Part shown: in pieces, positions 2,476-57,894 of the stretch
How the letters are laid out: the number at the start of each line of letters is the position of its first letter
Numbering within the stretch: position 1 is the stretch's first letter
Source of the DNA: a virus
Reading direction: 5' to 3' (one strand)
DNA: 64,000 bases
IMG/VR virus record: IMGVR_UViG_3300005998_000005
Location: 940-64,939 of that record
Position numbers and translations under genes: made by a program
The notes under the pieces: model-generated
What the model was told of the DNA's origin: nothing
The model's database searches: none
Seen by the model: the letters and a program-made list of their open reading frames with translations, nothing else

Positions 2476-2478
2476 GAT

Positions 2479-4122: not shown

Positions 4123-5180
4123 TTCAGCCCCTTATTTTCTAAATCGTTCTCTTTTTCAGCGATCGGCAGTTCCTCCAGCTCGAAAAGATCGTGTGACATG
4201 CGGCGGACACCGATGTTGTATTCCATCAGCAGTGTGACCAGCTGTTCGCCATTCATGAGGCCCACGGGTGTTTTATCCGGCTGATTGGCTTCCTTGATGG
4301 CCCCGGTGCTGAAGTCGCTGGTGGTAATGATCAATCCCTGTTCATGGGCACCAAGACTGCCGCGCACCTGTTGAACGGTCGGGCTTTGGATATTGCCTTT
4401 CCATCGTTCTGCCTGAACAGCCATCTTTATCCGGACCACATCGCTGATCAGCAGCGTGCCCCGGACATCAGTACCGCCATCGCCGCCGTACTTGGTAACC
4501 TCGATGCTTTCAAAACCCATCTCAGCCAGCAGCTGTCCAACCAGCTCCTCAAATTGAGCTGGACTCAAGTCCATCAGCTGGGACAGCAGCTTTTTCCGGA
4601 TCTCTCGATTGTGCTTGGAAATCTGATACGGCAGGCCGGTTCCCATCCATTTGACGAGGCTGTAATACCCGGGTGATGTGCGAACAAAACGGCCGGGCTC
4701 ACCGCTGGCCTTTGCCCGTTTGAGTTTAGTCACCAATTGGGCGTTCATAGTTGCTTCGGGAGTCTTGCCGGAGGTATTCAACCACCCCTGATTCAGGGCC
4801 TTGTCAGTGATGTCCCGGTAATGCATGGAGTTCCGGTTACCAAACTGATCCAGCACCTTTTCTGCAGCATCCAGAAATGAGAATGTCTCTTTCGACTTAA
4901 CCGAAGAGCTCGCGGCACTTCGCTCCGGCTCCTTGGCATCGCAAACAGCAACAAGCTGCGTATCCCGAAGAAAGAACGTCTGAGGCGCAACCTTCACAAA
5001 GGTCGACTGGTCCCTATGCTTTTTAATATCCGAGTAAAGGCGGGCACTGACAGTGGCCTCCGGCGTTTTGCCTTTTGCTACCCACAAGCCCGCTTCAATG
5101 ATCCGCTCGGCAATCTCTTTTGCATGGAGAGGCTTTCCAGCGTCCTTCAATATCTGAATGGCTGCGTCTTGAACGTTCAT
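4119..5180 (-). CDS. Tandem HARE-HTH domains plus Mrr-type restriction endonuclease domain
   Basis: Two repeats of the form LxxxGxxxHxxxIxxxxxxxG...GKTPEAT; C-terminal FEELVGQLLAEMGF, GGDGGTDV, VQAERW, GLIITTSDF. Confidence 0.85.
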   Translation of the reverse strand: MNVQDAAIQILKDAGKPLHAKEIAERIIEAGLWVAKGKTPEATVSARLYSDIKKHRDQSTFVKVAPQTFFLRDTQLVAVCDAKEPERSAASSSVKSKETFSFLDAAEKVLDQFGNRNSMHYRDITDKALNQGWLNTSGKTPEATMNAQLVTKLKRAKASGEPGRFVRTSPGYYSLVKWMGTGLPYQISKHNREIRKKLLSQLMDLSPAQFEELVGQLLAEMGFESIEVTKYGGDGGTDVRGTLLISDVVRIKMAVQAERWKGNIQSPTVQQVRGSLGAHEQGLIITTSDFSTGAIKEANQPDKTPVGLMNGEQLVTLLMEYNIGVRRMSHDLFELEELPIAEKENDLENKGLK

Positions 5181-15704: not shown

Positions 15705-18700
15705 TCAAATCAAACCGAAGAAACGCTCGAAAAACATGCTCAGCTTATCCAGCACAGTTTGTTTCTTCACGGCATGACTATTGTTTCTATTGAATCTGGA
15801 AACCGGAGGGAGAATATTTGTGATGGCGGTTCCGGTGACGGGAATCGCTCCGTCTCGGAATGCATTCTCAATGAATAGCTTTGTTTCATCAGCGTTGAGT
15901 CTTTCCTCCGCAATAATCCGGTCCAGTTCCTTCACCTTTTTAGCCGCAATGTAAGCAGCCCACTGGGCATCAACTTTGGAATTTGTGGAAACAGAGTCCA
16001 CGAACTGTTCGATAAGGTCTTTCTTGTTGCGCAGACTGGGACTGGAGTTGATCGCACGCTCGATGGCCGCCCGGATTTCCTTATCTTCGCCCGTACCTTT
16101 CTTCTTCAGGTATTTTTCAACCAGCATCAGGATGTAATCTACATTGATCTCAACCTGCTTGATCAGCTCAATCTCGAAGACCACATCATCGTTGATCGAT
16201 TCTTTTTCGGCCTCGGATGTGCTGCGAAATTCGGCGAACAGATTCAGATACAGACTCTGATAATCCTGAAAATCCCGGTCGCTGAGAATTGCGTTCCCTG
16301 TAAAATCATCAAATGCCGTAAGAATGTTCTTCAAACGCAGGATAGAACCAAAGAGCTTAATAAACGCCTTCTGAGCCGCTTCGCCAATGATGGATTCATT
16401 GAGAGGGAACTTTTCCGTCAATTCTTCAACCCGTTTTTCGTATTCCTTGTAATAGTCGGCATAGGGTTTCAAGAGCACAATGCCCTTGGCATCTTTGTTC
16501 CCGAACAGAGCGAGAGCATCGTTAGTTTCCTTCTCTAAATTACGGAAGGAAATAATATTGCCGTAAGTTTTGACGGAGTTGAGAATGCGATTTGTACGGG
16601 AGAATGCCTGAATCAGACCATGGGCACGCAGATTTTTATCCACCCACAAAGTGTTGAGGGTGGTCGCATCGAAACCGGTCAGGAACATATTGACAACAAT
16701 CACCAAATCGAGCTCGCGGTTTTTCAGGCGTTGCGATAAATCCTTGTAGTAGTTCTGAAACTTGTCTGCAGAGGTGTCATAGCTGGTGCCGAACTGGGCA
16801 TTATAGTCCTTGATCGCAGCATCCAGAAAATCCCGCGAACTTTGATCCAATCCTTCAACTTCGAATTCCTCTTCACTTAGCAACCCGTCAGGTTCTTCCT
16901 CATTGGCGGCAAAGCTGTAGATCAGGCCCACTTTGAGACGCTGTGTTGGCGGCAGACCTTTTTGCTGGGCGGCGAGTTCGGCATAATAGCGCTTTGCGGC
17001 ATCGATGGAGGCCGTAGCGAATAGTGAATTGAACCCGTTGGTTCGCTGAGTTGCCTTACTTGCTTCGATCTTATTCTTGCTGGAAATCACCTCAGTCACA
17101 TTCGTGACAACCGAATGCCAATAATTGCTGGAACGTTTGGTTTTTTGGGTGAAGTGTTCCCGAATGTAACTCACCACCTGCGTGATACGTTTTGGGTCGA
17201 GCAATGCCCGCTCTGTATCAATAGCCGACACTTTTTTATCTTTGACTCTTGGGGATTCCTTAATCGTGTTAATGTAATCGATGCGGAAAGGCAGTACGTT
17301 TTTATCGGTAATGGCATCGACAATAGTATAGGTGTGCAGTTTGTCACCAAAAGCCTGTTCAGTAGTACGCCGCAGCGGATTACCGTGACTTCCTGCGTTA
17401 TCTGCAAAGATCGGAGTGCCGGTAAAACCGAACAAGTGATAGCGCTTGAAGGATTTGGTAATTTCAGTGTGCATATCGCCAAACTGACTGCGATGGCACT
17501 CATCAAAAATGACCACGACATGCGCATCATAGACCGGATGCTTCTTGTTTTGAGCCACAAAACGGCTGAGCTTTTGAATAGTCGTAATGATGATGCGGGC
17601 ATTTGGATCTTCAAGCTGCCGTTTTAACACCGTCGTCGACGTGTTTGAGTTGGCCGCTCCTTTCTCAAAACGTTCGTACTCGCGCATGGTCTGGTAATCC
17701 AGGTCTTTACGGTCTACAACAAACAGTACCTTGTCTATTTCTGACAAGCCTCTCGCAAGTTGAGCCGCCTTGAAACTGGTTAAGGTCTTGCCGCTGCCAG
17801 TGGTATGCCAGACATAACCACCCGCTGCCGTTTTACCTAGTTGCTTATGGTTTGTACCGGTGGCGATGCGTTGCAGAATCTGCTCGGCCGCCGCAATCTG
17901 ATAGGGCCTCATCACCAGCAGCTTACGATCCACGTCAAACACACAATATCGGGTCAGGATATTCAACAATGTATGCCGGGCAAAAAAAGTTTTGGCAAAA
18001 CCACGCAGCTCAGTAATAGGGTGATTTCTCGCATCGGCCCACCAGCTCGTGAATGAAAAACTGTTGGAGGTTTTACGGCGCGAGCGTTTGCTGCGCTGTT
18101 CGGCCAGATGGCTGTCGCGCACTGTGTTGCTGTAATACTTGGTCAGGGTGCCGTTGCTGATCACAAATAACTGTACATACTCAAACAGGCCGGAACCTGC
18201 CCAGAAACTGTCGCGCTGATAGCGATTGATCTGATTGAACGCCTCACGAATATCAACGCCCCGGCGCTTGAGTTCCACATGCACCATCGGGAGACCGTTA
18301 ACAAGTACCGTCACGTCATAACGGTTGGCTCGCGCACCTTCCACTTCGTATTGGTTGATAACCTGAAGACTGTTGTTGTGAATATGCTGTTTATCAATCA
18401 GGTAGATGTTTTTGACCGTGCCATCATCACGGCTGAGCACCTGAATATGATCTTCCTAATACGAGTTGTCTTTTCGACAATGCCATCATTCGCTCCGGAA
18501 ATGCAGGTGCTGAAAAATCGCTCCCATTCCGCATTAGAAAAGGTGATCTTGTTGAGTTTCTCCAGTTGCTTGCGCAGATTGGCAATCAGGTCGGCTTCGG
18601 AGGTAATAGGCAGGTAGTCATAAGCCTGCAGTTCCAATTGCTTGATAAATGCCTTTTCAAGTGAGTCCTCCGACTGATAGGCGGTTTCCCGCACCTCGCT

Positions 18701-18781
18701 AACCATATATTCGGCGACAACGGTGCTTTCATCAGAAAGCGCAATCGGTTCAATGCCATAGCGTACAGGTTCTTCGCTCAT
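15705..18781 (-). pseudogene. hsdR: Type I restriction subunit HsdR, 1-bp deletion near 18457
   Basis: RYDVTVLVNGLPMVHVELKR, HTTGSGKT, DECHRS, FTGTP, MFLTGFD; ATT(C)AG restores TTRIQEDHIQ. Confidence 0.9.
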
Positions 18782-19316
18782 GCCGCCTCCTTGAATGTTA
18801 ACAGTTTGTCCCGGTAATACTCATACTGCTGGCGGCGTGCTTTGATTTCAGCGGGCAGCCCGGAGGAGAGATCGTTCACCAGCGCATCGAACTTATCGAG
18901 AATGGCAACAATGCGTTCCTGTTCTTCCATTGGGGGAACTGGAACCGGCATTTTAAGAAACATTGGCTTCCGCAGTGATGTTACTGAAGAATGAACAGAC
19001 GTTTTCTGCACGTAATCATAAAACCTGGCAGCAAGATAATGATAGATATAGCGGGAGTCGACTTCATCACTCGGAACGATCCTGTAAGCTCGCTGATGAA
19101 GTGCATATTTACCTTCAGCCCAATGAAAAACCTTTCCGACACCAACACCGTCGCCTGCCGTGATAATGGCGGTTTCGTCAAAGTCGTATGAATTTAGATT
19201 CAACGGCTCACGACCTCTTGCATAAAACACGTAATCACCATCCTCAATAGCATCTTTTGTATCGTGACTGCCTGTTCCTATAGTTGCTATTTCACCCAAT
19301 GTCGTCCACCTTATCC

Positions 19317-19332
19317 TTGCTTGCTTGCTTGC
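19317..19332 (-). repeat. (GCAA)4 tetranucleotide tract in the hsdS inter-TRD linker
   Basis: TTGC x4 on the plus strand; currently in frame (ASKQAR). Confidence 0.75.
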
Positions 19333-19401
19333 GCTCGCTACGCTCGCGTCATCAAAACTCAGTAGTTCGTCGCGGTAATATTGATACTGGCGACGGCGTG
19401 C

Positions 19402-19437
19402 TTCTAGCTCCGCTTCTAGCTCCGCTTATAGCTCCGT
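19402..19437 (-). repeat. Three 12-bp tandem units (AELE-type spacer repeats) in hsdS
   Basis: TTCTAGCTCCGC x2 plus TTATAGCTCCGT; the 5'-most unit carries TAA where the others have GAA. Confidence 0.85.
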
Positions 19438-19960
19438 GAAATTGTCAAGTACCTTGACAATTTCACGCTGCACTTCTAAGGGCGGGATGGGTACAGAAAA
19501 TTTTTCCATGCTTTTGCCGGAAACGCGTCGTACTTTGGCTCCGGTAATGTGGCGCGTTTTTTGTGACCGGAAATGTTCTGACTGAAAGAAGTAAGCGATA
19601 TATTTGGGGTCAAGTGAGTGGCTATAAATGTATGCATCACCGCTAACCGCAATTTCGCCTTGGCCTATCCATGCAACCGCTTTGCAAACATCCTCTTCAT
19701 TCTCGCTCGTGGTAGCAATAACGAGATCACCACACTTTGCCTTCCGTAGACGATTGGCAAGTTTAGGTGATACAAATGACTTTGTTTCAGCTGTCCAAAT
19801 CCCATAATGCGTGTAGAGCTGGCCGTAGTGGATTGCGCCTATTCCAGAATCGGCAAGATCCTTTTTCTGAAGGCCATTGCCTCGAATAAACGTTCCGACA
19901 TCTCCCAAGGTTTTATATTCCACTCCTTCAGGGCAGAGCTTCGCAATTAATTTTTCAATT

Positions 19961-20794
19961 CTATTCATCGCTATCGCCCTCCAGCTTCTTAATGTTGTTA
20001 TCTTTCGTCAGTAGACGCATCTGCTGGATGGCCGTCTGGTTCAGCAGTCCAAGCCTTTCGGACGGCTCCATCTCCTGCTGAATCAAATGGGCATTCAGGG
20101 TTTCAAGGTTCGCGAGGCAGACCAGTTGCGAGACATTGGCATAGTCCCGAATATTGCCCTTTTTATCCGGGTTCTCATCCCGCCACTGTTTGGCTGTTTT
20201 GCCGAAGAGCGCCGCGTTCAACAAGTCGGCCTCCGAAGCATAAACAAAACTCATCTGCTGCTTCGTCAGCTCCGGTGGGATGAGATTCTCTTTGATGGCA
20301 TCGGTGTGAATGCGGTAATTGATTTTGGTAAGCTGGCGTTTGACATCCCAGCCAAGTTGTTTTTGCTCCTGTTCTTTGAGTCGCTGGAATTCTTTGATGA
20401 GGTAGAGCTTGAATTCAACCGACACCCAGGACGCAAATTCAAAGGCAATGTCCTTATGACCGTATGTTCCGCCATAGCGCCCGGCTTTGGAACTTAGACC
20501 AATGGCTCCAGTTAAGGATATCCATCGCTTTGGAGTAAGCGTGAAACTGTTTAGACCGGCCTGTTTTCTAATCCCGTCGAATTCGACGGGGTTAAAATCC
20601 GGATTGTGGAGCTGCTCCCAGATCCCGAGAAGCTCCAGTGTATTGCGATTTCTGAGCCAGTTTCTAATCAAATCGTCGGGATGTTCCGGGTTTTTGGATT
20701 TTGCAATATCCGTCAGGCAAATAAAGTCACTTTGGTCGATTGATTTAATTTTCACCTCGGTGCTTAGCACCTTTATCGTATCGTTCTTAGCCAT
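19961..20794 (-). CDS. KilA-N domain DNA-binding protein
   Basis: [48 protein letters not shown]; likely start MAKNDT overlapping the hsdM stop. Confidence 0.82.
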
Positions 20795-22370
20795 TTTCAC
20801 ATCCCTCCAAATCTGCCACGATGGCATCAATCTGCGTTCGCAGTTCCGATTGTCGGGCGACGATTCCGGCAATTTCTGTATTGAGTACGATGATATCAAT
20901 TTCTTCGCGTTCATCCTTTTGTTCGACGTAGGAGGAGACGGCGATGTTATAGTCGTTTTCACCAATCTCTTCGTTGGGCACCAGTTTGGCAAAATGCTCC
21001 ATCTCCTCGCGGACGGTGAAGGCATCAAGAATCTTCTTTCGATGGCTTTCAGTCAGCTTGTTTTTATTTCCGTTACGAGTAAACTCGGCAGAGGCATCGA
21101 TGAACAAGGTGGCGTTGTCATGTTTCGACTTTTTCAGAACGATAATGCAGGTGGCGATGGTGGTGCCGAAAAAGAGATCAGGCGGTAGCTGGATCACCGT
21201 GTCGATATAGTTGTTGTCGATCAGGTACTTCCTGATTTTCTGTTCAGCGCCCCCGCGATAGAGCACGCCCGGAAATTCAACAATGGCCGCTGTGCCGTTC
21301 ACCGCCAGCCAGCTCAGGATGTGCATGGTGAATGCAAGGTCGGCCTTACTCTTAGGAGCAAGCACGCCTGCCGGGGCATAACGTGGGTCATTGATAAGTA
21401 AAGGGTTGTCCTTACCCGCCCATTTAATGGAGTACGGCGGATTGGAGACGATGGCCTCAAAAGGCTCATCATCCCAATGAGCCGGATCGGTGAGCGTATC
21501 ACCATGAGCGATGTCGAACTTTTCATAGTTGATATCATGCAGAAACATGTTAATCCGGCAGAGGTTGTAGGTGGTCAGGTTGACCTCCTGGCCAAAGAAA
21601 CCTTGGCGAACCTTGCCATGGCCCAGTACCTTGGCGAACTTGAGCAATAACGAGCCGGAGCCGCATGCCGGGTCATACACCTTGTTGACCTCGCTCTTAC
21701 CCACTACAGTAATTTCAGCAAGCAGCTCAGAGACTTCCTGCGGGGTAAAAAACTCACCACCCGACTTTCCAGCGGTGGAGGCATACATCGTCATCAGATA
21801 TTCGTAGGCATCACCAAACAGGTCAATGGTGTTTTCCGAGAAACCACCCGATCCGTTGTTAAGTGGCAGGTCGCCGATGGCATCAAGCAGTTTTACCAGT
21901 TTTTCATTACGCTTGATAACGGTGGGTCCTAGTTTGCTGCTGTTAACATCAAGGTCGTCAAACAACCCCTTAAAATCCTCTTCACTGTCACTACCCAATG
22001 CTGACCCTTCGATGTCTTTAAAAACTCTGGAAAGGGTTTCATTAAGATCCTGATCGTGCCGTGCCTGCGCCCGTACGTTGACAAAGAGATCGGAGGGAAG
22101 GATATAGAAGCCTTTTTCTTTGACCGTCTCAGTACGTCCGAATTCAGCGTCTTCATCACTCAGTCCGGCATAATCAAAATCCGGGCTTCCTGCCTTGCGC
22201 TCCAGCTCGTTCAAATAACCAGTCAGGTTTTCGGAAATGAAGCGGTAGAACAGCATCCCAAGCACATAGCTTTTGAAGTCCCAACCGTCGACACTTCCTC
22301 GTAAATCATTGGCTATGCGCCATATGGTTTTGTGGAGCTCCGCGCGTTCTGTTTCTTTATTCTTACTCAT
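20787..22370 (-). CDS. hsdM: Type I restriction-modification methyltransferase HsdM
   Basis: [40 protein letters not shown]. Confidence 0.95.
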
Positions 22371-32485: not shown

Positions 32486-32516
32486 TTACTTACCGGAAGC
32501 AGTCTGGAAGTGTCGG
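32486..32516 (-). promoter_or_regulatory. Bipartite late-promoter-like motif, copy upstream of baseplate J
   Basis: Plus strand TTACTTACCGGA-N14-GTCGG. Confidence 0.75.
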
Positions 32517-38940: not shown

Positions 38941-38971
38941 TTACATACCGGAAGAGCCGCTGGAGTGTCGG
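38941..38971 (-). promoter_or_regulatory. Bipartite late-promoter-like motif, copy upstream of the hub/lysis block
   Basis: TTACATACCGGA-N14-GTCGG. Confidence 0.72.
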
Positions 38972-40058: not shown

Positions 40059-43000
40059 AGGGTTTCATAGTTTCTTATTTTTCGTTCCCGGAGGTCCTTG
40101 TAGACCGCCTCAGCCACCTGACGGCCATCGATATGCGTGGCCACGGAAACCTCCACCGGCCGTTCCGAAAGCGCATCGAGCTTGTTCAACAGTGCCCCCA
40201 GAAGGCTGGCCATATCGGGGCCTTCCTGCTGGCCTGCAGGCGGTGACACAAACGAATTCGTTCTTGCCGCTGCCAGCTTTTCAGGCGGATGCAGTTCCGG
40301 TTGCATTACCGGAGCGGCATTGACCTCCTGCAACATGCCGGTCCCGGCCGTATCCACCGAAGCTCTGACATCAGCCGGAATATTCAACGCGGGAATCATC
40401 CCCATTGACGGGGCGATCTGCCCGGCAATGGTCACCGGCGGAACCGAAGGAGCCGCAATGGCATCCGTGAACTGATAAGGCTTACTTACCGGAATTTTCG
40501 GTGTAATGTCGGTTGCTCCGGCTGGCCCTGCATTCACGACCGGCATTGCCGAAGCCATGACAGGCGAAAGCATCAGCACGGCGGAGAACACCGTCGGGAT
40601 TAGCTTTTTATCGAGACTTGGAATCAAAGCGAATCGTCCGGCGCTTTGCTGCACAACAGCAGGTTTGGCGGAGGCGGTCTGCAATCTGGGGGCAGCTTTG
40701 GCTTCAGGTGCCGGTGAAGAGGAAAACAAGGACTTGATACCGGTCCACGCACCGCTGAGCAGTCCGGATGCGTTCTGTTTCACCGACTGAATGACGCCGC
40801 CCACTCCGGACTTAACCTGGCTCCAGAGTGCAGTTCCTTTTTCGGCTACTGCAGAGATCCCTGAGCCAATGATGTTTTTCAGCCCGCTGAAGGTGGAGAT
40901 GAACGTCTGTTTAACCGCCGTGGCACCGGCAGTCAGCTTATTCCAAACGCCGCTCCATGAATCCGGCAAAGACAGTTCCGGGATGAGATTACTTAACGCG
41001 CCTTTGATCAGCCCACCGACTTTGGATACCATCGACCCGGCACCATCAACCAGTGAACCCCAGAGATTGCCTGCCGTTCTGAAAGGAGCAGCTAGCAGAT
41101 TCATCGCGGTCTGGCCCGCTGATTTGAGCCCGTTCCAGACACCAGACAGTGCAGACAGAACTCCACGAGCCGCAAAGGAGAACACTTTTGCAGGCAATGC
41201 CAGTGTGGAAAGCATTCCATCCGCCAGAGTTGTGAGCAGTGCTTTACCTGATGCTGTCAGGGTCGATAGCGGACCTTCCTTGGCATCGGAGAACGGCAGC
41301 AGGCTTCGCAGCTTGCCAAGCGCACTCTTCAACATGCGGAATGGATAGGTAACCGCCGACCAGATGCCTTCACCCAGTGTGACGAGCATCTTTTTCCCGG
41401 CCTCGAAAAAAGTCATGTCGCCTGAGAAGAAGCTTCTCACTGTGGCGAACAGATTCCACAACGTGCTGACGAGCGGCAGGTTCATGAAGACACTGACGAT
41501 ACGCTCACCGGCCGCCACAAAGAACCATCCCGTCGAAAACCGAGGTAATGAAGTTCCAGACGCCGCTGATGACATCACGTGCCCATCTGAATGGAGTTGC
41601 CAGAAAATCAAAGACCGCTCCGCCAATGGCCTTCAAACCATCCAGCAGGGAGACATCTCCGGTCAGTATCTGCCAGACGGAATAGATAATCTTCCCGGCG
41701 GCCACAAACGCCTGAGCAATCAGCCGGACCGGAAGCAGAAATTTGTAGATGAACTTGGTGGCATAGATCAGTGAGCCGACAATCACCTTGCCGACCCAGA
41801 CGACGCTTCGCACCACAATGGCGAGCGCTTTGACAACCATCGTGATATTCCAGACCACGATGCGGAGTGCATAGGCAAGTCCCTGCAGCAGAACACCGGC
41901 AACCGTTCCGACCACGGAACCGAACTTCCGCCACGCCGATCCGTCCACTGAATTGGCAGAGACACCAAATATTTCCACCACCGAGAAGATGGCTTTGTAG
42001 AGGGTGGCATAGGCTGAAGTCATCGCCTTTACGGCTGGTTCGAGAATGGCCCGGATTCGACCGAAGGCATGTGAGAAGGCTTCCCACAGCCCGGACAGGT
42101 ATTCCCGCACCCGGTAATAGACCTTGAAGACGGTCACGACAAAACCGAGGAGTCCGGCCGACTTGAGCCGGTTGGCAAGCTCGGCCGACATCTGGCCGGT
42201 GGAGCCGCTCAAAGATGAGATGAGCGTCTTCACGCCCTCGAAGACCAGTTTGATCTTGTTCCACGTCCCGAGTACCACATCCTGGATTCCTCCGAAGTTT
42301 GTCTCCCATGCCCGTTTCAGCAGATAGACCGCCAGAACCACACCGGCGATGGCGGCGGTGACCGGCAGAAAATATGTGGCAATGGCAGAGCCGACACCTG
42401 CGGCCGCTGCGCTGATGGCGACGAACCCGGCCTTGATTGCCGGAAGCATGAGTCCGACCAGTCCGACGGCCGAAGTAACCGCTCCGGCAACGACCAGCAC
42501 CGCTCCAAGAGCCATGGAAAGTGTCAAGACTACCCGGGTGACTCCGGGCATGGATTTGGCCAGTTTCTGCAGGAACAGAATGAAGCGGGAAATACCGTTC
42601 ATCACAGGGGTGACGACCGGTAGTAACGTGCGACCCAGTATTTCGGTCAGGTTGGACATCTGCTGCCGGATCAATCCAAACTGAGCTCCGATATCCTGAT
42701 TCATGGCACTGGCCATCTGATTGGTGACAGCTGTTCCCGTTTTCATGGCTGCACCGACCGACTTGATATTGCCCTCCAACGATTCCATTCCGGCGGACAT
42801 CTGCAGCAGGAACTTGACCGCCTCGTCGGAGCCGAAGGCTTTCTTCAGCTTCACCTGAGCTGCTGCCTGAGACATATCCGGAAACTGCTGTTTGATTTCC
42901 TGCAGAATGGGAATGACGCCTTTGAGACGGCCGGTTGTATCGGTGAACGAGAGCCCGAGCTGGTCACCGGCCTCGGCCGCTTTCATGATAAATGCCTTGT

Positions 43001-46802: not shown

Positions 46803-47362
46803 TGTTCATCTCCTTTGGGTTCATAGGTTCGTTCTTCATTCACGCTGCCGTGAAACTGGAAAGTTCGGTCCTTGATCAGATGGCCGTTTCTGATTTCGCC
46901 ATTGTAAACAGGACAATCTTCAATGCGGATGCGTCCGGAGCTTTGCTTCAGATTGGAAAGGTTGACCCGGTTGAGGCCGCCCAGCGGAGCGATCTCCGTC
47001 AGGTTGAGTTGGCCCTGATCCGTGATGGTCAAAACGGGATTGCGCTGGATAAAGCGGGAGACCGACTCCTGGAATTCAAGGAGTTCGACCTCACGGTCCA
47101 CAGTCACAATCAGGTCAAAGTCGAGATGATAGAGACGCGGAAAAGAACACTCCTCGAATGACAGAGCGTCCACGTCCTTTTCAATCAGGCGGCTTTGGCT
47201 GCGGCGCAGTTTGTTTTCGCTGACTCGCGGCCCCTGCAGAATGATGCTGGGCGTGCGCTGAACTTCAAAAACATCATCAGGCAGAACCAGCACGGCATCC
47301 GGGTGGATGTCGGCTTTGACCTGCCTGATCAGTGTTTCTGTAACGGTTCGTATTGTGCTCAC
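46799..47362 (-). CDS. Putative tail terminator/completion protein
   Basis: First gene of the tail module; GTG start with GGAGG RBS; call based on position. Confidence 0.5.
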   Translation of the reverse strand: MSTIRTVTETLIRQVKADIHPDAVLVLPDDVFEVQRTPSIILQGPRVSENKLRRSQSRLIEKDVDALSFEECSFPRLYHLDFDLIVTVDREVELLEFQESVSRFIQRNPVLTITDQGQLNLTEIAPLGGLNRVNLSNLKQSSGRIRIEDCPVYNGEIRNGHLIKDRTFQFHGSVNEERTYEPKGDEQ

Positions 47363-47388
47363 GGTAGCCTCCGGATGTTTCTGCCAGA

Positions 47389-47419
47389 TTACTTACCGGA
47401 AGCGCAGCGGATGTGTCGG
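47389..47419 (-). promoter_or_regulatory. Bipartite late-promoter-like motif, copy upstream of the tail module
   Basis: TTACTTACCGGA-N14-GTCGG. Confidence 0.75.
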
Positions 47420-47531
47420 GGAGTTGTTGAGATTGAAAGTTGTTTGAAGGGAGGGAATAGAAAAGTAGAATAGCCCCATTCAATATAGGGCTGATTCTCC
47501 TTTTGATTATTTCGGACCGGGAACCCGGATA

Positions 47532-48494
47532 TCAGGTCTGATTACACTCGCATAATTGATCCGAGCAATTGTGTATCTCAATCGTTGTATGTTTCAGTTT
47601 GGAAATTTCAGAGAGACGGGAGCAATAATCTGATGGTGTTCGACTTTCTTTTGTGACGACTGTGATCGTCGCTGCAAAATCGTTTGAATTTAGAGGCCAG
47701 ATGTGAAGGTCTCCAACCACACTGTCTCCGTCAGATTGAATAGCATTAACTACAGCCTCGTGGACATCTTTGTTGCCATTCCCGTCAAGTAGTATGAAAG
47801 CGCTGCTTCGAAGCAAACCCCACGCCCATTTTGCGATTAATACTCCACCAACGATCCCCATGACCGGGTCGAGGAACACCCAGCCAAAAAACTTTCCGGT
47901 CACAAGAGCCACAATTGCCAGAACCGAAGTCAACGCATCCGCGACTACATGTAAATAGGCAGCCCGAAGATTGTGGTCGTGATCGTGGTGGTGATGATCA
48001 TGATGATGGCTATGGTCGTGATCGTGGTGGTGATGTTCCCCTTTTCCGTGAAGCAACCATATGCTTAGAACATTTACCGCAAGTCCCACAATTGCGACGA
48101 GAATAGCCTCATCAAAAGCGATGGGCACTGGATGAATAAAACGTCCGACCGACTCGACCATCATGTAAATTGCAGTGCCACCCAAAAACAATGCGCTGGT
48201 GTAGGCAGAGAGAATTCCAACTTTTCCGGTACCGAAACCAAACTTTGAAGAATTGGAAAACTTCCTCGCCATTACATATGCAAAATAGGTTATCCCCAGC
48301 GCAAAAGCGTGGGTTCCCATGTGCCATCCGTCTGCCAAAAGAGCCATTGATCCGGTAAGAACTCCGGCAATAATTTCACCGAACATTGTGAGTCCGGTTA
48401 GGATTATCACTTGCAGTGTTTTCTTTTCATTTTCCTGAGTAACGCCATCGAAATCATGTTCATGACGTATCTGTTTCAAAGTTTCCTCATGCAT
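47532..48494 (-). CDS. dmeF: CDF-family Co/Ni efflux transporter, DmeF-like
   Basis: GSMALLADGWHMGTH, His-rich loop, HNLRAAYLHVVADALTS, DLHIW. Confidence 0.88.
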   Translation of the reverse strand: MHEETLKQIRHEHDFDGVTQENEKKTLQVIILTGLTMFGEIIAGVLTGSMALLADGWHMGTHAFALGITYFAYVMARKFSNSSKFGFGTGKVGILSAYTSALFLGGTAIYMMVESVGRFIHPVPIAFDEAILVAIVGLAVNVLSIWLLHGKGEHHHHDHDHSHHHDHHHHDHDHNLRAAYLHVVADALTSVLAIVALVTGKFFGWVFLDPVMGIVGGVLIAKWAWGLLRSSAFILLDGNGNKDVHEAVVNAIQSDGDSVVGDLHIWPLNSNDFAATITVVTKESRTPSDYCSRLSEISKLKHTTIEIHNCSDQLCECNQT

Positions 48495-48530
48495 AAAACA
48501 ACATCCTTAAATTTGTTATAAATCTTCACG

Positions 48531-48809
48531 TCATCTGATTTTTCCAAGGTGATCGACCAATTCATCGATGAGCTGATCACTGTTGCCATCCTGAATGCTT
48601 GCATTTTGTATGCAGCCTTTAATGTGGTCACCCACGATTTGTGTCCAGACACCTCTAATAGCACCTGAAACGGAAACCACCTGCCGGAGGACCTCAATGC
48701 AATCACGGTCATTTTCGATCATACCGGACAATCCCCGGATTTGACCTTCAATACGATTCAGCCGCTTAATCAAACGTTCTTTATCCTGATCTGTTCCGCA
48801 AAGAGCCAT
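48531..48809 (-). CDS. CsoR/RcnR-family metal-sensing repressor (DmeR-like)
   Basis: RLNRIEGQIRG, DCIEVLRQ, HIKGC; RBS GAGGA. Confidence 0.88.
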   Translation of the reverse strand: MALCGTDQDKERLIKRLNRIEGQIRGLSGMIENDRDCIEVLRQVVSVSGAIRGVWTQIVGDHIKGCIQNASIQDGNSDQLIDELVDHLGKIR

Positions 48810-48843
48810 CTGTTATTCCTCTTGATAGTTAATGTATAGTATA

Positions 48844-49969
48844 TAGTCGTCCCTGAAAAAGCCTTTTTTGAGACGAGTTAATAAACTTTCATAAGTTTTA
48901 GTTTTTTATTTTCTGATATTTTGGCATGAAAGACTAGAAAAATAACGGGCCCAAAAATGGAATTCATCCATTTTTTCATGTTATAGGCAGCAGCAGCGAG
49001 CAAAACATTGATTTGATCTCCAATGATGCCTTTCAAAAAGTTTCTTTTCATTCGATGATCAGACTTTAAACGCCCAATTATCGGTTCTATTCCTGCTCGT
49101 TTTCTAAATCGCTTTTTTTGTTTTTGCCGCTTGTAAGGACTATCTGTTTTTCGTAATACCGAAGTCGTTCTTCAGGAAGATTTCTTTGTAAATCACGAAG
49201 AAGCGAACCTGCAATAGTCTTTAACCTGCGTGCCGCTTTAAGGGCTGCTTTACGACGTTTGGGGTGGGAACGATTATGCTGAGCGTTAGTAAGTTTCGGT
49301 AAAGTTCTTTTGTAGGTTCTGCGCAACTTCACCTGTTCAATAAAAGCAATTTTTATGCACTGATCTGCTATTTTACGATGCAGCTTACTGTCTGTTGGAT
49401 AAGTTATGTTCTTTTCCTGAACAGTTGTGTCAATATGGATTTCTTTTTCCACAGCTTTTTGACCATGAAGATTAACTGAAACGTGAAGGATTTTTTCACG
49501 GCCTTGTTTGCCTATGCGTTTACGAAAATAAACCAGCTCACTTGGATCAATTGAAAACTCCACTGAAATTCAATTTCTCCACAAAAGTATTGATAGTAAG
49601 GGTTTTGAACCCAACGTTCAACTACTACTTCATCGGATAGGGTTTCAATTTGTTTTAACAGTAGAAGACCAACCATCAAACGGATTGGTTTGGCAGGACG
49701 ACCTTCATCAGAGTACAAACTTAAGAAGCTTTCTTCAAACTCGTCCCAGGGAATACGATTGGCGAGTTTATAAAGTTTATCTGATGGATTTAAAAGGTTT
49801 TCTAAACTCTGATGAAGAAAGCTATGATGACTGGAATGTGACGATTTTGGTTTCATTAATTTGACCGTTTTTTTAGTGTAAAGTTAATAATCATGGTCAA
49901 AAAATAACACAAAAAAGAAATTCTGTATATTCTATAGCAAAGACTTAAGTTGTTTTTCAGGGACGACTA
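48844..49969 (-). mobile_element. IS5-family element, non-autonomous (frameshift plus internal deletion), probable TATA target duplication
   Basis: Perfect inverted ends TAGTCGTCCCTGAAAAA/TTTTTCAGGGACGACTA with TATA on both sides; transposase fragments GRPAKPIRLMVGLLLLK, IDTTVQEKNITYPTD, RAGIEPIIGRLK; AT-rich. Confidence 0.88.
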
Positions 49970-49994
49970 TATAGGGGTATACCCTATGTTTCAA
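49970..49994 (-). promoter_or_regulatory. Upstream half of the csoR-dmeF promoter/operator, separated from its -10 by the IS
   Basis: The empty site reconstructs as TTGAAA-N17-TACTAT containing ATAGGGTATACCCCTATACTAT. Confidence 0.65.
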
Positions 49995-50034
49995 ACATAT
50001 GAAAGCGCTGATTGATGTCAAACGGTTTTTCTCT

Positions 50035-50520
50035 TTATGAAAGAAATTTCAGGGCCTGCCTGTAATTTTGCTCAATCTCTTTGCGGTATTTCTGCATAAC
50101 GGGATGAAGAAAAGGTCTGGCCGGGATGATAATGGTCGCCCCGTTCGGATGGTTGATGGAGGCTCCGTATTCCATGACAGCGCCGATATTCTCCATGCTT
50201 TCACCGTCCTTGTTGACGGTTCCCCGGAGCAGACCGACAAATGCTTTGTCCGCCATGATCTTCTGGGTGATGGAATTGATCAGAAAACCGGTGTCGATAA
50301 GCGCCTTGCTGGAGCCCTTGCGGGCGATGGTGCTATCGGCCAGCTTGGCAAAAGCCTGTCCGCCGGGGGCCTGATTGCGGATACCCCTTTGAATCTCCCG
50401 AACAAGAAACAGGGCATTGCGGATGGTGGCCTGCTGGAGAGCCATGGCGATCCGGGGTCCAAGAGTGCCATTCAGTTTGGCTTTGGCCTTGTTCCAGTCA
50501 CCGGTCCGTTTAACGCCCAT
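50035..50520 (-). CDS. Neck/virion morphogenesis protein
   Basis: KALIDTGFLINSI, MEYGA, IPARPFLHP. Confidence 0.78.
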   Translation of the reverse strand: MGVKRTGDWNKAKAKLNGTLGPRIAMALQQATIRNALFLVREIQRGIRNQAPGGQAFAKLADSTIARKGSSKALIDTGFLINSITQKIMADKAFVGLLRGTVNKDGESMENIGAVMEYGASINHPNGATIIIPARPFLHPVMQKYRKEIEQNYRQALKFLS

Positions 50521-52950: not shown

Positions 52951-55310
52951 TTAGTTGATTTCCACGGTTTCGTTCGATTCGTTACCGACACGGTTGTTGT
53001 AGGCAGCCATGAAGCCGCTGCGCAGGCGATCCTCGAGGGAGAGCTTGCGATCATCCACATCGTGCGGTCTCATTCCGGCGGAACTGCGCATGGGTGTTTC
53101 GCTCGATGCTTTGGACTTCTGCTTTTCAGGCTCTTTTTCCGGTTCCGGCTGAGCCTTGGCATCCGCCTTGGAGCTTTTGGCCATCTTTTCATAGGCGGCC
53201 TCGGTGGCGGCAAAGGCGTCGTCCGACAGCTCCGCCAAACGCTTGAGTTCCGTGTCGCGATCTTCGCCGAAATCCATGCCTTGCTTTTCGAGCTTTGAAA
53301 TCAACTTGTGAGCGCGGGCTTTCGAAGCGGCAGCCTTTTGTTCGGCCTCCAGCTCCTGAATGCGTTTCTGAAGTTCGGCCACCTGAGCTTTCAGCTGGCG
53401 GTTTTCCTTTTCCAGCTCGCCTCCGGGAGCCGGGTTGTCTTCCTGCCGTTCCTGTTTTTTCTTAGCGGCGTCGGCGGACGACTCATCTGGTTTCTCGGTT
53501 TTTTCGTCCATAGTTGGATCTCCTTTGGGTTGGTGTTCAACAGATGGTTCCTGAACCGACGCCACCTGCAGAATGCGGGCATTTTCATCTGCCCCTTTGC
53601 GGTCCAGCAGGCCCAGGCCCGTAAAAGTCACGCCGTGAAGAATCTCGAAGACGGGTTTCCCATCGAGTTCACGGCCCTTAAATTTTCTGAGGTGAGTGCA
53701 GTAATCGGCTTTGCTCTTGAAGCGCTTGTGGCAGACGGAGCATTCACCTTCTTCGTAATCACACTCCATCGATACCTGCGTGATGATGCCTCGCTTCATG
53801 AGCTTGTAGGCCAGCTGGGCATTGGGCGTGTCTCCGGTATAGAGTTCACCCACGCATTCGACCCGGCCGCCACAATCCCGCCGACGATGTCGACAAACTC
53901 CTGCGAGTGCTGCAGGTCGACTTTCTTGTTGATGACGGTCATGTGCCTCGTGGCCAACTCTTCAGCGGTGAAATGGTCACCATTCCGATTGGTGCCGGTT
54001 CGACAGAGGATGAAGGTAAACTGGGGATCACCCGGCAGACCTCCGCTCATCGCTTCGGTGTTCAGTCCCGCATTTTCATTGAGGCAGAGTTCCACCGGGA
54101 TGGATGTATGGATATTGGCGGCGGCAGCCATCGGTACAGGCTTTGCCGCCTGCTCGGTATCCGCATGGGACTGGTTATCTTTCAGGCAAACGAAAAGACG
54201 CTCCTTGGCACTGGAAGCCTCGCCATGCTTGGAGGTGATCGAGTATTTATGGTCCTTGGTTTTCATCCGGCTCTGACGCCCCAGACCGCCGATGATCTTT
54301 TTCATCTGCTGTTCGTTCGGATAGGCATGATCTCGGTATGAAATAAGCCAGTGCGGGATATGGGTGGCGTTGCCGAGAAACTCCTGAAAGAAGTCGGAGG
54401 CGTTGCCCTTGGTGACCGTCACATGGCTGGTTTCGTAGTTTTTGACCTTGGTATCCGCCTTAATGGTCAGGCCGTCCCAATACGTCATCAGCCCTTCGAC
54501 AAAGTGATAGGCTTTTTCGTAATTGGTGGTCGAAAACTCGGTGGCATACGGCGGATCAAAGTAAGCGAGGTCAGCCTTCACCTTGGGAAGGATCTCGTTA
54601 ACATCCCCGCGATAGGCTTTGTTTTCCTTGCCGTTATCGAATATCAGGGCGTTGATCCGCTCGATATTCGCTTTCAGGCGTTTTTTGAATTCGTCAGGGG
54701 TGTCCTGACGCTTGCCGTAATCGGTGGAAGACGAAAAGTGGCCGAATCCGCCTTTGCCGCTCATGCAGGTTTTACCGAGGGCAAACAGCGCGATGTCCTT
54801 TTTGTATCCGGACAGATCGTCACAATTGGCTCTCAACGAGTCGATGAGTGCATGGACACCTTTGGCAAAGAAAATCCCTTTGAAATTGTCCTTAACAAAG
54901 GTTTTGGCTTTGGGATTGTCCGCCAGCAGCTTCTCGATCTCTGCCTCGGACAGCTTCGTCGAGCTGTTTTCGATAATGGCTCTGGCTGCGTGGTGACTGT
55001 AGCGAAGACGGTCATTGGCAAAAACCCGCAGCCCTTTGGATTTGTACATGTAAGCAACAACGGCCGAGCCGGAAAAGGCATCCAGAACGGAGGAAACTCT
55101 GTCCGGGGTGTTACGCCAGATCCAGTCGACCAGTTTCTGTTTGCTGCCGATGTAGTTGGTGATGTACTTGGGGCGTTTCTCCGGGGGCTGCTCTTCAGGA
55201 GCCTTCTGTTCGGCTGCATCGGTCCCGAGCTCGTCGGGATCGATTGCGAGCGCCGCATCTGCCTCAAGGAGGAACGCCAGCCTTTCCAGGTCAGTGGCAA
55301 ACATTTCCAT
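52951..55310 (-). pseudogene. Fusion of D12-class DNA adenine methyltransferase, prohead protease and scaffold; frameshift near 53870
   Basis: YIGSKQKLVDWI, VLDAFSGS and YFDPPY, then without a stop VDLQHSQEF.DIVG; the next ORF continues with RGIITQVSMEC, CSVC..YCTH and a coiled-coil tail. Confidence 0.78.
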
Positions 55311-55376
55311 CAAATTCTCCGGTTCAATCACTGTTATTTGCCCCGATCGCACCGGGCGAGCGGGAGGTTTCAGCGA

Positions 55377-55407
55377 TTACTTACCGGAAGGCTTTGAAAT
55401 GTGTCGG
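55377..55407 (-). promoter_or_regulatory. Bipartite late-promoter-like motif, copy upstream of the MTase-protease/capsid block
   Basis: TTACTTACCGGA-N14-GTCGG. Confidence 0.75.
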
Positions 55408-55416
55408 AAAGGCGTC

Positions 55417-56280
55417 TCAAATATTTTTCAGTTTGATATCACTCAACACAGGAAGGTTGGTGCATCTGCAAAATGGATGTGCCGGTTGCCCCGGGAATTT
55501 ATCAATCGGGAAGGTTTTACCATTGAGCGGACCACAGACCGGACAGGTTCGCTCGTCACCCATGGTCATCCATTCCAGCTTTTTAATTCCGACATGCTGG
55601 TGGAACTTGATTCGCCCCATGTTGTGCGCCCGCAACACCTCGGTCCGGGCGATCATTTCCATACGGTACTGCGCCTTGCTGAAGACTTTTGTTCCGGCCT
55701 GCTTGAAGGAGTCTTTGTAGATGACAACCCGTCCGAGGTCCCGGACAATTTCATCCGTACCTTTTCCTTCTATGATGCCCTGCATGATCACGCGCTTTAT
55801 ACCGTCAGCCAGTTCCCGATTTACATCACCGGCAAGCGTCAAGTTGTATTGCGTCATGAAGTCGAGGGCATTGGTGTCGACGATGGAGAACACTTTGGTG
55901 GCCAGTTTGTCGATACCATCTGGCTTGAGGTCGGCATAGAATGGCAGTGATGCGGATGTCAGCTCGGTAATACCCTGAGCGATGCCGCCCTTGAAAGCAT
56001 CCTTGGTGCTCTTGCGGAAAACAAGTGTCTGGTCCCGCTTCAACTGGCTCTGTATCTCGTTCAACTCGCCCTGTAATTTCTCCAGACCTTTCAACGCAGC
56101 CAGCTTGTTGTCCGGCAGAGATCCAAGGCTACGGTATTTCAAAATGGCTTGAGCCACTTCCTGCTCAGCCTTGTTGAGGGACTGAGTCAGTTGGGCGGCA
56201 ATGGAATCATTGTAACGGTTGCGGGATTTCAGGCTCTTGAGTATTGCCGCCTGAATGCGTTCTTTAAGGTCGGAAGGCAT
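55417..56280 (-). CDS. Minor head morphogenesis protein (SPP1 gp7/MuF family)
   Basis: MIARTEVLRAHN, EWMTMGDERTCPVC, PAHPFCRC. Confidence 0.88.
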   Translation of the reverse strand: MPSDLKERIQAAILKSLKSRNRYNDSIAAQLTQSLNKAEQEVAQAILKYRSLGSLPDNKLAALKGLEKLQGELNEIQSQLKRDQTLVFRKSTKDAFKGGIAQGITELTSASLPFYADLKPDGIDKLATKVFSIVDTNALDFMTQYNLTLAGDVNRELADGIKRVIMQGIIEGKGTDEIVRDLGRVVIYKDSFKQAGTKVFSKAQYRMEMIARTEVLRAHNMGRIKFHQHVGIKKLEWMTMGDERTCPVCGPLNGKTFPIDKFPGQPAHPFCRCTNLPVLSDIKLKNI

Positions 56281-56282
56281 GG

Positions 56283-57788
56283 TCAGGACTCTCGGCGATC
56301 AATAAACCTGCAGGCCGGGGAATCGAAGGTGCGCTCGGTGTTGTGTACCCGGCAGCGATTGGACTCGGGGTTGAAGTGGCTGCACTCATCACACAGGGAA
56401 GTTGCCGCCGTTGCTTCCAGCTCCGCTGAACAGTGATAGTGTGCCTCGGTATCGAGATCATTGCCGTCAGCAGGAATACCGAGCATCTTTCTTGCGCTGG
56501 GCAGACTCATTATTCCGGAAACCACCATATCAACGACCGGCTTCACCTGTTTTTCATCCATCAGGTCGATGTTCTTGCGCTCAGTCTCGCGGTTGGCAGC
56601 CTCGATATCCGGGTCCAGATCCATCTTGAGCTGCAGGCTGGAGCGGCTGATCAATTTGCGGTCATACAGCTCGATGAGCAGCTTCTTGAAGTCGACGGCA
56701 TCACTTGGGTCGAGGTCATTGAAGATGAATTGCAGGGATTTGTCGGCGTGGCCTTTCAGTTCCATCCAGTCATCGAAGACCCAGTCGAGTAGTTTGCGGG
56801 CGGCCTGTTTGATCTCCCGGATCATGACCATCATTTTCTGCATACTAACAGAAGCCGTGGCAAAGTTGGGACCGTCGCCGGTTACCAAGGACCGGGAAAG
56901 GCCCAGCGCCACCACAATGTCTTCTTTGACCTCCTTGACCTTGTCTTCGACGTTGAGCACCTGGCCATCGGTGCCGTGAGTTTCCACATTCACATAGAAC
57001 GGGACCACAAGGCCGCTTTTCATATCCATCTTGTTGACCATGTCACGGACCTGTTCCAGCATCCGCTGGTCGGGCATCACCATTTTTTGTCCGAAGGCTC
57101 CGCCCACTTTGAGCAAGCGAAACGGAGTGGCCCAGCGCTTGGCAATAGCCTGTTCGGCTCGGCGGTAGTCACGCAGCAGTTCGATGGCCTGAAAGGCGGG
57201 CAAAACAAGTGAGTTGCCTCTTGGTGAAAAGCCCGGGGCATCCCATTTCAAGTGGATGACCTGATCCACCGGAAGGTCGATGGGGTCGCTTGCAGATCCT
57301 GAATCTTCGGCGTATTGCTTGGCTTCAATGAGATCGCCTTGGGCATACTTTACCTTCACCGAAACCGGATTGACGCATACCACTTCCTCGATGTCCTAAC
57401 CGGAAGTTGCATAGCGCTTGAACCCAACGGCATCGCCTTTGACGAGCAGCTGAAGGATCATGTCCTTTATGAATTCCGAGACGTTAAGTCGCCATGCGGT
57501 GCTGACCGCATCGTCTTTCAGCGTCTCGTCATCACTGGTGATTTTGATCTCATCCCCGACTGCAAAGGTGCGCCATGAATTGACGCAGTTCTTTACCAGC
57601 GGCTCTTCGACATAGTATTCCCAAGCCTTTCTGGCTCGCTCTTCCCATGTGGCCGGAACCGCGTCCGACGCGTTTACCTTGCTGAAGGCAGATGCATCGA
57701 GGGCTGCCGCTGCAGCCATGGGCACAATGGCATATCCATTGGATTCGTTGTCAGGCTGCTCGGTATCTGGCTGGGCGTTTGTATCCAC
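56283..57788 (-). pseudogene. Portal protein, in-frame TAG at 57396-57398
   Basis: YYVEEPLVKNC, VIHLKW..RGNSLVLPAF, QFIFNDLD; both halves in the same frame; lies between terL and gp7. Confidence 0.78.
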
Positions 57789-57863: not shown

Positions 57864-57894
57864 TTACTTACCGGATGGAGAGGAAAAACGTCGG
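57864..57894 (-). promoter_or_regulatory. Bipartite late-promoter-like motif, copy upstream of the portal
   Basis: TTACTTACCGGA-N14-GTCGG. Confidence 0.75.

Follow-up and report, generated by a model that had tools for sequence, protein, structure and literature searches.

The stretch of DNA analysed here (hereafter the window) comprises 64,000 nt of viral sequence, positions 940 to 64,939 of IMG/VR record IMGVR_UViG_3300005998_000005, and is part of a 68-kb viral contig to which CheckV assigns a completeness of 45%. Positions 55310 to 52951, on the minus strand like all features of this gene, hold a single gene consisting of a methyltransferase, a linker, a prohead protease and a scaffold tail, which a 28-nt deletion has left in two reading frames. 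The upstream open reading frame (ORF; 55352/55310 to 53796, 518 aa) contains the motifs YIGSK, DAFSGS and DPPY, and then continues without a stop into GTNRNGDHF, VDLQH (53921-53907) and IVGG. The frame of the downstream ORF (53853 to 52951, 300 aa) is open from 53874, with GRVECVGELY encoded before the first start codon, followed by GIITQVSMEC, CSVC-x10-C-x-H and a long helical region. The likely start is the ATG at 55310 (MEMFATDL), as in the relative P0002, with a GTG at 55352 as the alternative; the stop codon is 52953-52951. Both ORFs match one PHROG profile, phrog_27806 (798 positions), the upstream over positions 1-480 (E 1.7e-243) and the downstream over 494-797 (E 1.1e-141), and they are therefore two pieces of one gene; the annotation of this profile is just 'DNA methyltransferase'.

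A preliminary description of this DNA, made from its letters, had proposed a DNA methyltransferase fused in frame to a prohead protease-scaffold, in which the methylase motifs run stop-free into VDLQH..IVG, with GIITQVSMEC in the other frame and a CxxC..C.H cluster beyond it. All these elements could be located at window coordinates, and the fusion itself is borne out by the single profile spanning both ORFs and by homologues in which the two halves form one protein. The gene order in the window is portal, MuF, fusion gene, a 121-aa gene and major capsid protein, and no other protease or scaffold gene was recognised in the slot between MuF and the major capsid protein.

The first domain (54174-55142) is a D12/Dam-family N6-adenine DNA methyltransferase, assigned to the D12 class (Dam/DpnM) by profile, motifs and fold, and is intact in the window. 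Pfam family PF02086 matches residues 67-327 of the window ORF (E 1.4e-24; 87.7 bits against a cut-off of 22), and scores 86.1 bits on P0001, an intact relative of 802 aa encoded on the locus L005 of another metagenome, which served as the reference for residue architecture. The S-adenosylmethionine (SAM)-binding motif I (FxGxG type) and the catalytic motif IV are present inside the domain as DAFSGS (55082-55065) and DPPY (54557-54546), and YIGSK (55154-55140) lies just upstream of the domain range. Across the methyltransferase of P0001 (residues 64-386), the predicted local distance difference test (pLDDT) is mostly high, and Foldseek matches the model to Mcbe1 (1.6e-7), EcoDam (5.7e-6), T4 Dam (2e-5) and DpnM (3e-4), with a probability of 1.00 in each case. 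A phmmer search of the methylase part against PDB sequences gave no match, and a Pfam scan of the window ORFs and the intact relative found neither a helicase nor any further Pfam domain.

The prohead serine protease domain (53572-54032) is split by the deletion, its His (53909-53907) being encoded in the upstream frame and its Ser (53772-53770) in the downstream frame. Searching the protease-like segment (P0001:405-625) against 1.84 billion representative proteins identified 922 relatives at E<=1e-3. In an alignment of 74 sequences (29-71% identity), a His, a Gly, a Ser and three Cys residues never vary, and a further His is found in at least 90%. The putative catalytic pair, H71 and S126 of the domain, occurs in the same order throughout the 74 sequences and is invariant in them, in accordance with the previously suggested likeness to the His and Ser motif pattern of prohead proteases. 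The AlphaFold2 model built on this alignment has a pLDDT of 96-99 over residues 31-190, and when compared with known structures by VIA-align it matches T4 gp21 (5jbl; Z 11.8, root-mean-square deviation 2.7, 131 residues) and the varicella-zoster protease (Z 11.3). The top 36 entries are all gp21 or herpesvirus proteases, among which the herpes assemblins score Z 7.5-11.3, as against 6.8 or less for unrelated MCE-domain entries. Foldseek found 221 matches at E<=1e-3 among viral models (BFVD), the best being Bacillus phage G gp19 (7e-18) and many carrying the names prohead protease, COG3740 or XkdF; against the PDB it returned the right protease family, yet at E 8e-3 or weaker, and the PHROG head maturation protease profile matched weakly. 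The gp21 alignment and the BFVD matches bear out the protease fold proposed for the C-terminal part, which, as modelled, is that of the T4 gp21/herpes assemblin prohead proteases.

Inside this domain, after the Ser, is a Cys-x2-Cys-x10-Cys-x-His cluster (53742-53692), of which the three Cys are invariant and the His is conserved in at least 90% of the 74 sequences. A PDB sequence profile search with the protease alignment retrieved zinc fingers alone and no protease, the matches being C2H2 zinc fingers aligned to this Cys3His insert (E 2.6e-6), and Pfam zf-C2H2 matches the cluster weakly. To judge from its pattern of residues, the cluster looks like a zinc-finger-like insert.

The domains of the intact protein are separated by flexible segments. 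P0001 begins with a mostly disordered N-terminus containing one conserved helix (residues 1-63), followed by the methyltransferase (64-386), a disordered linker with a pLDDT below 50 (387-433), the protease (434-600), a second disordered linker (601-645), a series of long helices (646-732; modelled by AlphaFold2 as 646-692, 698-709 and 713-732), a further disordered stretch (733-774) and a C-terminal helix (775-791, likewise from AlphaFold2). The methyltransferase-protease linker of the window (54033-54173) is disordered too and contains AAANIHTSIPV (54128-54093) and LNTEAM (54065-54048), the latter a candidate cleavage site. Short linker motifs recur in 62 relatives, in which L-x-(T/A/S)-(E/D)-A is found at a fixed position approximately 15 residues ahead of the protease core; the window has LGTDAA (55229-55212) as well as LNTEAM. 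The frequency of [ST][ED][AG] per 100 aa in these 62 relatives, which are related to one another and hence not independent, is 2.2 in the N-terminal tail before the methylase and 1.6 in the methylase-protease linker, compared with 0.07 in the methylase core. T4 gp21 and phiKZ gp175 cleave after Glu, and cleavage of the fusion protein may take place at these motifs.

A second translational start appears to be nested within the gene. An internal Shine-Dalgarno (SD) sequence, AAGGAG (53520-53525), stands 8 nt upstream of an in-frame ATG at 53511, about 20 codons past the protease, and the same arrangement is found in relatives approximately 78% identical. The predicted nested scaffold ORF (52951-53511, 186 aa) is intact in the window and comprises long helices and a conserved C-terminal helix, presumed to be the capsid-binding end. 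In 66 of 70 distinct relatives taken from the fetched loci, a 6-nt SD core (AAGGAG or AGGAGG) precedes an in-frame ATG by 5-8 nt, the spacing being 7 or 8 nt in all but one, and this ATG follows the protease by about 15-35 codons; the background level of strong SD sequences at other in-frame ATGs of the same genes is 34 of 845 (4%). The residues around the SD vary (K/E/Q-G-D/E/G), and all sequences displayed encode the Gly by GGA; in elements of approximately 62% GC, this points to selection on nucleotides. Translation from the nested start is predicted to yield a free scaffold of about 190 aa in intact relatives. The tail itself has a weak match to Pfam Trimer_CC, and its assignment as a putative scaffold follows from position and shape because the scaffold PHROG profiles gave no significant match to it. 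Conservation of the nested start lends further weight to the proposed co-assembly of the full-length protein into procapsids.

The question of whether intact homologues are full-length fusions is answered by a search of 5.8 billion proteins, which found 426 homologues; each of the 120 listed is one protein, with a length of 792-803 aa in 119 cases and of 667 aa in one. One clade of homologues is approximately 80% identical to the window protein. Among 20 more distant representatives (about 50-71% protease identity), 17 have an N-terminal D12 methyltransferase, and two of these have it twice. Intact relatives are about 800 aa in length, or about 1290 aa when they contain two methylases, and the one to two methylase modules are always N-terminal to the protease. 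The protease-scaffold also exists by itself, in forms of about 380-410 aa, which implies that the methylase is an added N-terminal module. When one genome per species was scanned in GTDB, 98 relatives were found in more than ten phyla, with several copies in some genomes; the groups represented include Desulfobacterota, Verrucomicrobiota, Hydrogenedentota, Armatimonadota, Myxococcota and Acidobacteriota, as well as Chloroflexota, Nitrospirota, Planctomycetota, Zixibacteria and Gammaproteobacteria. When both halves were compared by tblastn with 50,697 phage records, there was no close relative and only distant partial matches appeared, namely the Erysipelothrix phi1605 methylase (36%) and Bacillus phage G gp19 (33%). 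Judged by these homologues, the fusion is a genuine and widespread family and not an artefact of this contig.

The relatives include a 14.4-kb head module (~62% GC) that is 96-97% identical at the nucleotide level among several isolates and one metagenome-assembled genome (MAG), namely Desulfosarcina alkanivorans (chromosome), Desulfofustis glycolicus, Desulfocarbo indianensis, Ectothiorhodospira shaposhnikovii and a Verrucomicrobiota MAG; the head-module loci of relatives are L008, L012, L015, L016, L023 and L037. The carriers share a near-identical temperate myovirus lineage across phyla. The head module is also 95.8% identical over 8.7 kb to the complete chromosome of Kiritimatiella glycovorans (CP010904.1 809123-831531, L008), where the host genes LysR, MetE and SHMT and a transposase lie upstream of the fusion gene. 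A match labelled 'Pasteurella multocida' was set aside as evidence of host range, the contig having 62% GC and probably being a contaminant.

In a full-length alignment of 16 sequences (38-92% identity), YxGxK, DxFxG, DPPY, His475, Ser530 and the Cys3His residues are all invariant. Such invariance speaks for activity of both enzymes in the fused state. The protease domain also occurs with other partners: in two BFVD entries it is joined to Dps/ferritin (A0A6J5N5R9 and A0A6J5RFH1), in P0130, P0139 and P0141 it follows an N-terminal extension without a Pfam match, and further fusions include very long C-terminal extensions of 1500-1900 aa, with P0219, P0230 and P0254 also among the proteins concerned. 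This suggests a general theme of cargo borne on the prohead protease. Such large N-terminal additions to related proteases also speak for the reading that the methyltransferase is a structural or regulatory appendage, for instance a plug that holds back activation of the protease or fixes how full the capsid becomes, with its activity irrelevant; the invariance of DxFxG, DPPY and YxGxK across 38-92% identity would be unexpected for a mere spacer, and this explanation is regarded as very improbable.

The copy in the window is damaged. Compared with the 95%-identical intact gene of L005, the sole internal indel is a 28-nt deletion at 53865/53866, flanked by GGCGGC repeats; the missing nucleotides are GGCGGCTGACTATCTGGAAGATGAAATC in L005, where they lie between two GGCGGC repeats, and the junction in the window reads GGCGGCC (53865-53871). 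Through the deletion, the residues DYLEDEIG, which separate the His and Ser motifs, are lost and the frame changes, the upstream ORF stopping 21 out-of-frame codons past the junction. The preliminary description had called the junction at GGCGGCCG a microhomology collapse, correctly in view of the loss between GGCGGC repeats relative to L005, and had proposed that reads be checked at 53860-53880. Assembled read contigs bear on this point. An annelid metagenome (X1), which matches the sequence best and is the likely source run, has in a second assembly a Logan contig with the same deletion at a depth of 82; being the likely source run, it is not independent of the window. Contigs from sediment (X2) and seawater (X3) carry the 28 nt, and a loose contig end from activated sludge (X4) agrees with the intact form. 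Runs containing only 37-50% of the gene's words were, with two exceptions, not taken as evidence of habitat. The deletion is hence a real allele of the source population rather than an artefact of the IMG assembly, and among the runs compared (X1-X4) it is private to that population.

The provenance of the window, a metagenome-assembled viral contig of 45% CheckV completeness, might suggest that the frame break is an assembly error, or alternatively a programmed frameshift, in a copy that is functional. Scarcely any credence can be given to this, since the change is a loss of 28 nt and no homopolymer slip, eight conserved residues are gone, a separate Logan assembly of the likely source run has the deletion at a depth of 82, no slippery site is present, no relative shows the shift, and an in-frame TAG also interrupts the portal gene of this contig. 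That gene (56283-57788, minus strand), which belongs to the same late operon, has the TAG at 57398-57396 where a relative has CAG, and is the only one of 15 late genes compared with an internal stop. Recoding of TAG to Gln was considered for the portal stop and set aside in view of the single internal stop among these 15 late genes and of the CAG in the relative; the TAG is probably a nonsense mutation rather than a recoded stop codon.

Other parts of the late region also differ from those of relatives. The MuF protein (55417-56280, minus strand) is 287 aa long, against 1523-1529 aa in relatives (compare L001:4455-9887), and is without their C-terminal extension of 1250 aa, which has no Pfam domain; Pfam scans of the relatives' long MuF and small neighbouring genes found no further domains. 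Two small genes (169 and 117 aa) that relatives have between MuF and the fusion gene are absent from the window. Between the neck and tail genes, the window has approximately 2.7 kb of additional sequence (47362-50047), placed between the genes that match p161 and p182 of relatives, where the relatives have about 60 nt. With its protease split, its methylase cut off from the scaffold tail and its portal gene interrupted by a stop, this copy is defective: it is a pseudogene in a decaying element and non-functional for a capsid-loading role.

The methylase part of the window has no lesion, is 98% identical to that of intact P0001 and lies in an open frame, in an element decaying elsewhere (the portal stop and the MuF of 287 aa rather than about 1525 aa). 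It might accordingly be proposed that the upstream ORF, with its methylase and half of the protease, survives as an unattached orphan methyltransferase that the host retains for this activity from a decaying prophage. This is improbable, as expression hangs on a late motif of the phage, the deletion may be no more than a recent event, and there is no sign of selection on the fragment.

This late motif, which the preliminary description had taken for the gene's own late promoter, is a bipartite sequence, CCGACA-N12-TTCCGGTAAGTAA (55377-55407, minus strand), 66 nt upstream of the ATG at 55310. As CCGACA-N12-CTTCCGGTAAGTAA, it is kept upstream of the fusion gene in relatives whose proteins are 64-98% identical. 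The window has six copies of the 14-nt core (32486-32499, 38941-38954, 40482-40495, 47389-47402, within 55377-55407, and 57864-57877), always on the minus strand, which is the late-gene strand, against 0.21 copies expected by chance, and all six copies are bipartite, CCGACA-N12-TTCCGGTA(A/T)GTAA. One copy is 76 nt upstream of the portal start and another is 27 nt upstream of the p182 gene. No sigma-70 promoter was predicted at the motif copies, and a terminator scan upstream of the fusion gene was likewise empty. The motif is hence a real repeated element, and its copies are likely to be late promoters or activator sites.

A defence island on the minus strand (1027-5180 and 15705-22370) lies towards the left of the window, where the element has its tail end. 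It comprises McrBC, represented by a McrC-like gene (1027-2475) and an AAA_5 gene (2479-4122), an Mrr-like nuclease with HARE-HTH (4119-5180), and the type I genes HsdR (15705-18440) and HsdM (20787-22370); an ADP-ribosylglycohydrolase is found at 92-1036. The fusion had been thought notable for its position beside an island rich in restriction-modification genes. The island is present as described, but the fusion is a widespread family that is special neither to this locus nor to the island.

Taken as a whole, the locus is probably best explained as a damaged copy of a conserved late gene with two products, the methylase of which would be loaded in the procapsid and injected. The identity of the domains, the persistence of the fusion in relatives, the signal for a nested start and the deletion are established here; for the intact gene, a course of co-assembly, cleavage, retention, injection and anti-restriction is inferred. 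This gene would give two products in one frame, a full-length protein of ~800 aa, consisting of a Dam-family methyltransferase, a flexible linker, a protease of gp21/assemblin fold with a Cys3His insert, and a helical scaffold, and a free scaffold of ~190 aa made from the internal ribosome-binding site. As both products would share the scaffold C-terminus, it is proposed that full-length chains, as the minority partner, assemble together with free scaffold inside the procapsid. Once the shell had formed, the protease would cut the linkers and the scaffold, and the small fragments would exit; the folded methyltransferase, at ~40 kDa, would be too large to do so, and may consequently stay with the DNA. 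It would then probably enter the next cell with the DNA and methylate adenines before resident restriction enzymes could act.

The shared scaffold tail, the flexible linkers around the domains, and a protease of a type that normally acts in the shell together support the view that the protein is built for carriage into the procapsid with a catalytically competent methylase attached. Retention of the freed methylase in the head and its injection to pre-empt restriction are suggested by analogy with T4 internal proteins and P1 DarB. The earlier proposal, by which the methylase would be co-assembled, might be freed by autoproteolysis and could act during packaging or after injection, is supported in part. 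That the methylase is a true capsid cargo in every respect, with fused carriage, release by the protease, injection and methylation of incoming DNA ahead of restriction, is put forward tentatively, as a possibility with the odds somewhat against it.

Several points weigh against this interpretation. The Pfam family Peptidase_S78 (PF04586) matches the His-to-Ser segment at 16.4-19.5 bits (E 0.001-0.01), below the cut-off of 21, and for this reason the domain is filed here under its fold and role rather than under PF04586. The SD-like site overlaps conserved residues (x-Gly-Asp/Glu/Gly), and part of its conservation may be due to protein constraint. In Kiritimatiella, the gene is found in a prophage remnant without terminase, and without portal (or MuF) upstream; this locus is a truncated or rearranged prophage that keeps its head-to-tail genes at 96% nucleotide identity. 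The protease could digest the methyltransferase, or could cut before assembly. Finally, a supply of SAM and sufficiently fast methylation after injection have to be assumed for a Dam-type enzyme that lacks a helicase, such as P1 DarB has.

The main rival to capsid delivery is that the fusion is an economy of polyprotein expression, which simply couples the methylase to late transcription. The enzyme would methylate progeny DNA in the cytoplasm, before or during packaging, enter the capsid passively and there be destroyed or discarded by the protease, with nothing functional injected. Orphan methylases of the Dam type in phages usually act in the cytoplasm on progeny DNA, the gene sits under a late motif, and the catalytic motifs would be conserved in this case too. 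On the other hand, a free methylase gene would serve equally well, the fusion has been kept down to ~50% protease identity and across more than ten phyla, and, because prohead proteases normally stay inactive before assembly, the enzyme would in any case be carried into the shell. Purely cytoplasmic action is considered rather unlikely on these grounds.

If the methylase does ride in the capsid, the fusion would constitute a simple, genetically hard-wired means of delivering an anti-restriction enzyme, present in hundreds of prophages from many phyla, by a route that neither the P1 Dar system nor T4 targeting peptides use. The fusion would likewise offer a natural model of how enzymes can be brought into HK97-type shells on a protease-scaffold, and such portable self-protection may partly explain why near-identical phages of this lineage (96-97% at the nucleotide level over 14 kb) are integrated in bacteria from different phyla. 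Public databases call these proteins only 'DNA adenine methylase', which leaves the head protease and the scaffold of this phage group unannotated. In practical terms, the element in the window has to be regarded as a defective copy.

The closest parallels in gene organisation are the nested protease/scaffold genes C/Nu3 of lambda and I/Z of Mu, in which an internal in-frame start yields a free scaffold that shares its C-terminus with the protease, and gpC and gpI are carried into the procapsid by this scaffold tail. Like these, the present gene is a late gene between portal-associated and major capsid genes and encodes its protease N-terminal to its scaffold; unlike them, it has a Dam-family methyltransferase (two in the forms of ~1290 aa) ahead of the protease and a Cys3His insert within it, and its short product is a predicted one. 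In fold and in the order of His and Ser, the protease resembles T4 gp21, herpesvirus assemblin (MEROPS clan SH) and the HK97-type proteases (PF04586, COG3740, XkdF), and it shares with them the genomic slot and the presumed role in head maturation. It differs from all of these in its sub-cut-off similarity to PF04586, the zinc-finger-like insert after the Ser and the additional N- and C-terminal modules. Loading into the head during assembly and injection with the DNA, as proposed here, are features of P1 DarB, a methylase-containing protein that is head-loaded, injected and protects DNA in cis from type I restriction, and of T4 Alt and internal proteins, the targeting sequence of which is removed by the prohead protease. 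In contrast to both, targeting in the present case would be achieved by covalent fusion to the protease-scaffold, with neither a separate targeting peptide nor a Dar assembly pathway.

Full-text literature searches for a methylase-prohead protease fusion, and for fusions of proteases that serve as cargo of capsids or encapsulins, brought up no paper describing one, the nearest being that of Iyer et al. (2017, PMC5512222). The polyvalent proteins of that paper combine several domains, have their genes among the late ones, and are predicted to travel in the phage head and to be delivered along with the DNA; assemblin-like peptidases are C-terminal whenever present in them and probably process the protein during assembly, and the methylase that prevails is of the EcoKI/TaqI type, linked to LPD36 and an SF2 helicase. 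The D12 methylase-protease-scaffold architecture was not found named in those passages of the paper that term searches brought up. The fusion resembles polyvalent proteins in being a multidomain effector among late and packaging genes with a C-terminal assemblin-like peptidase, and differs in that its methylase is D12/Dam-like, has no helicase and is borne on what is apparently the phage's sole protease-scaffold. The fusion is a variant of both the nested protease-scaffold genes and the polyvalent proteins.

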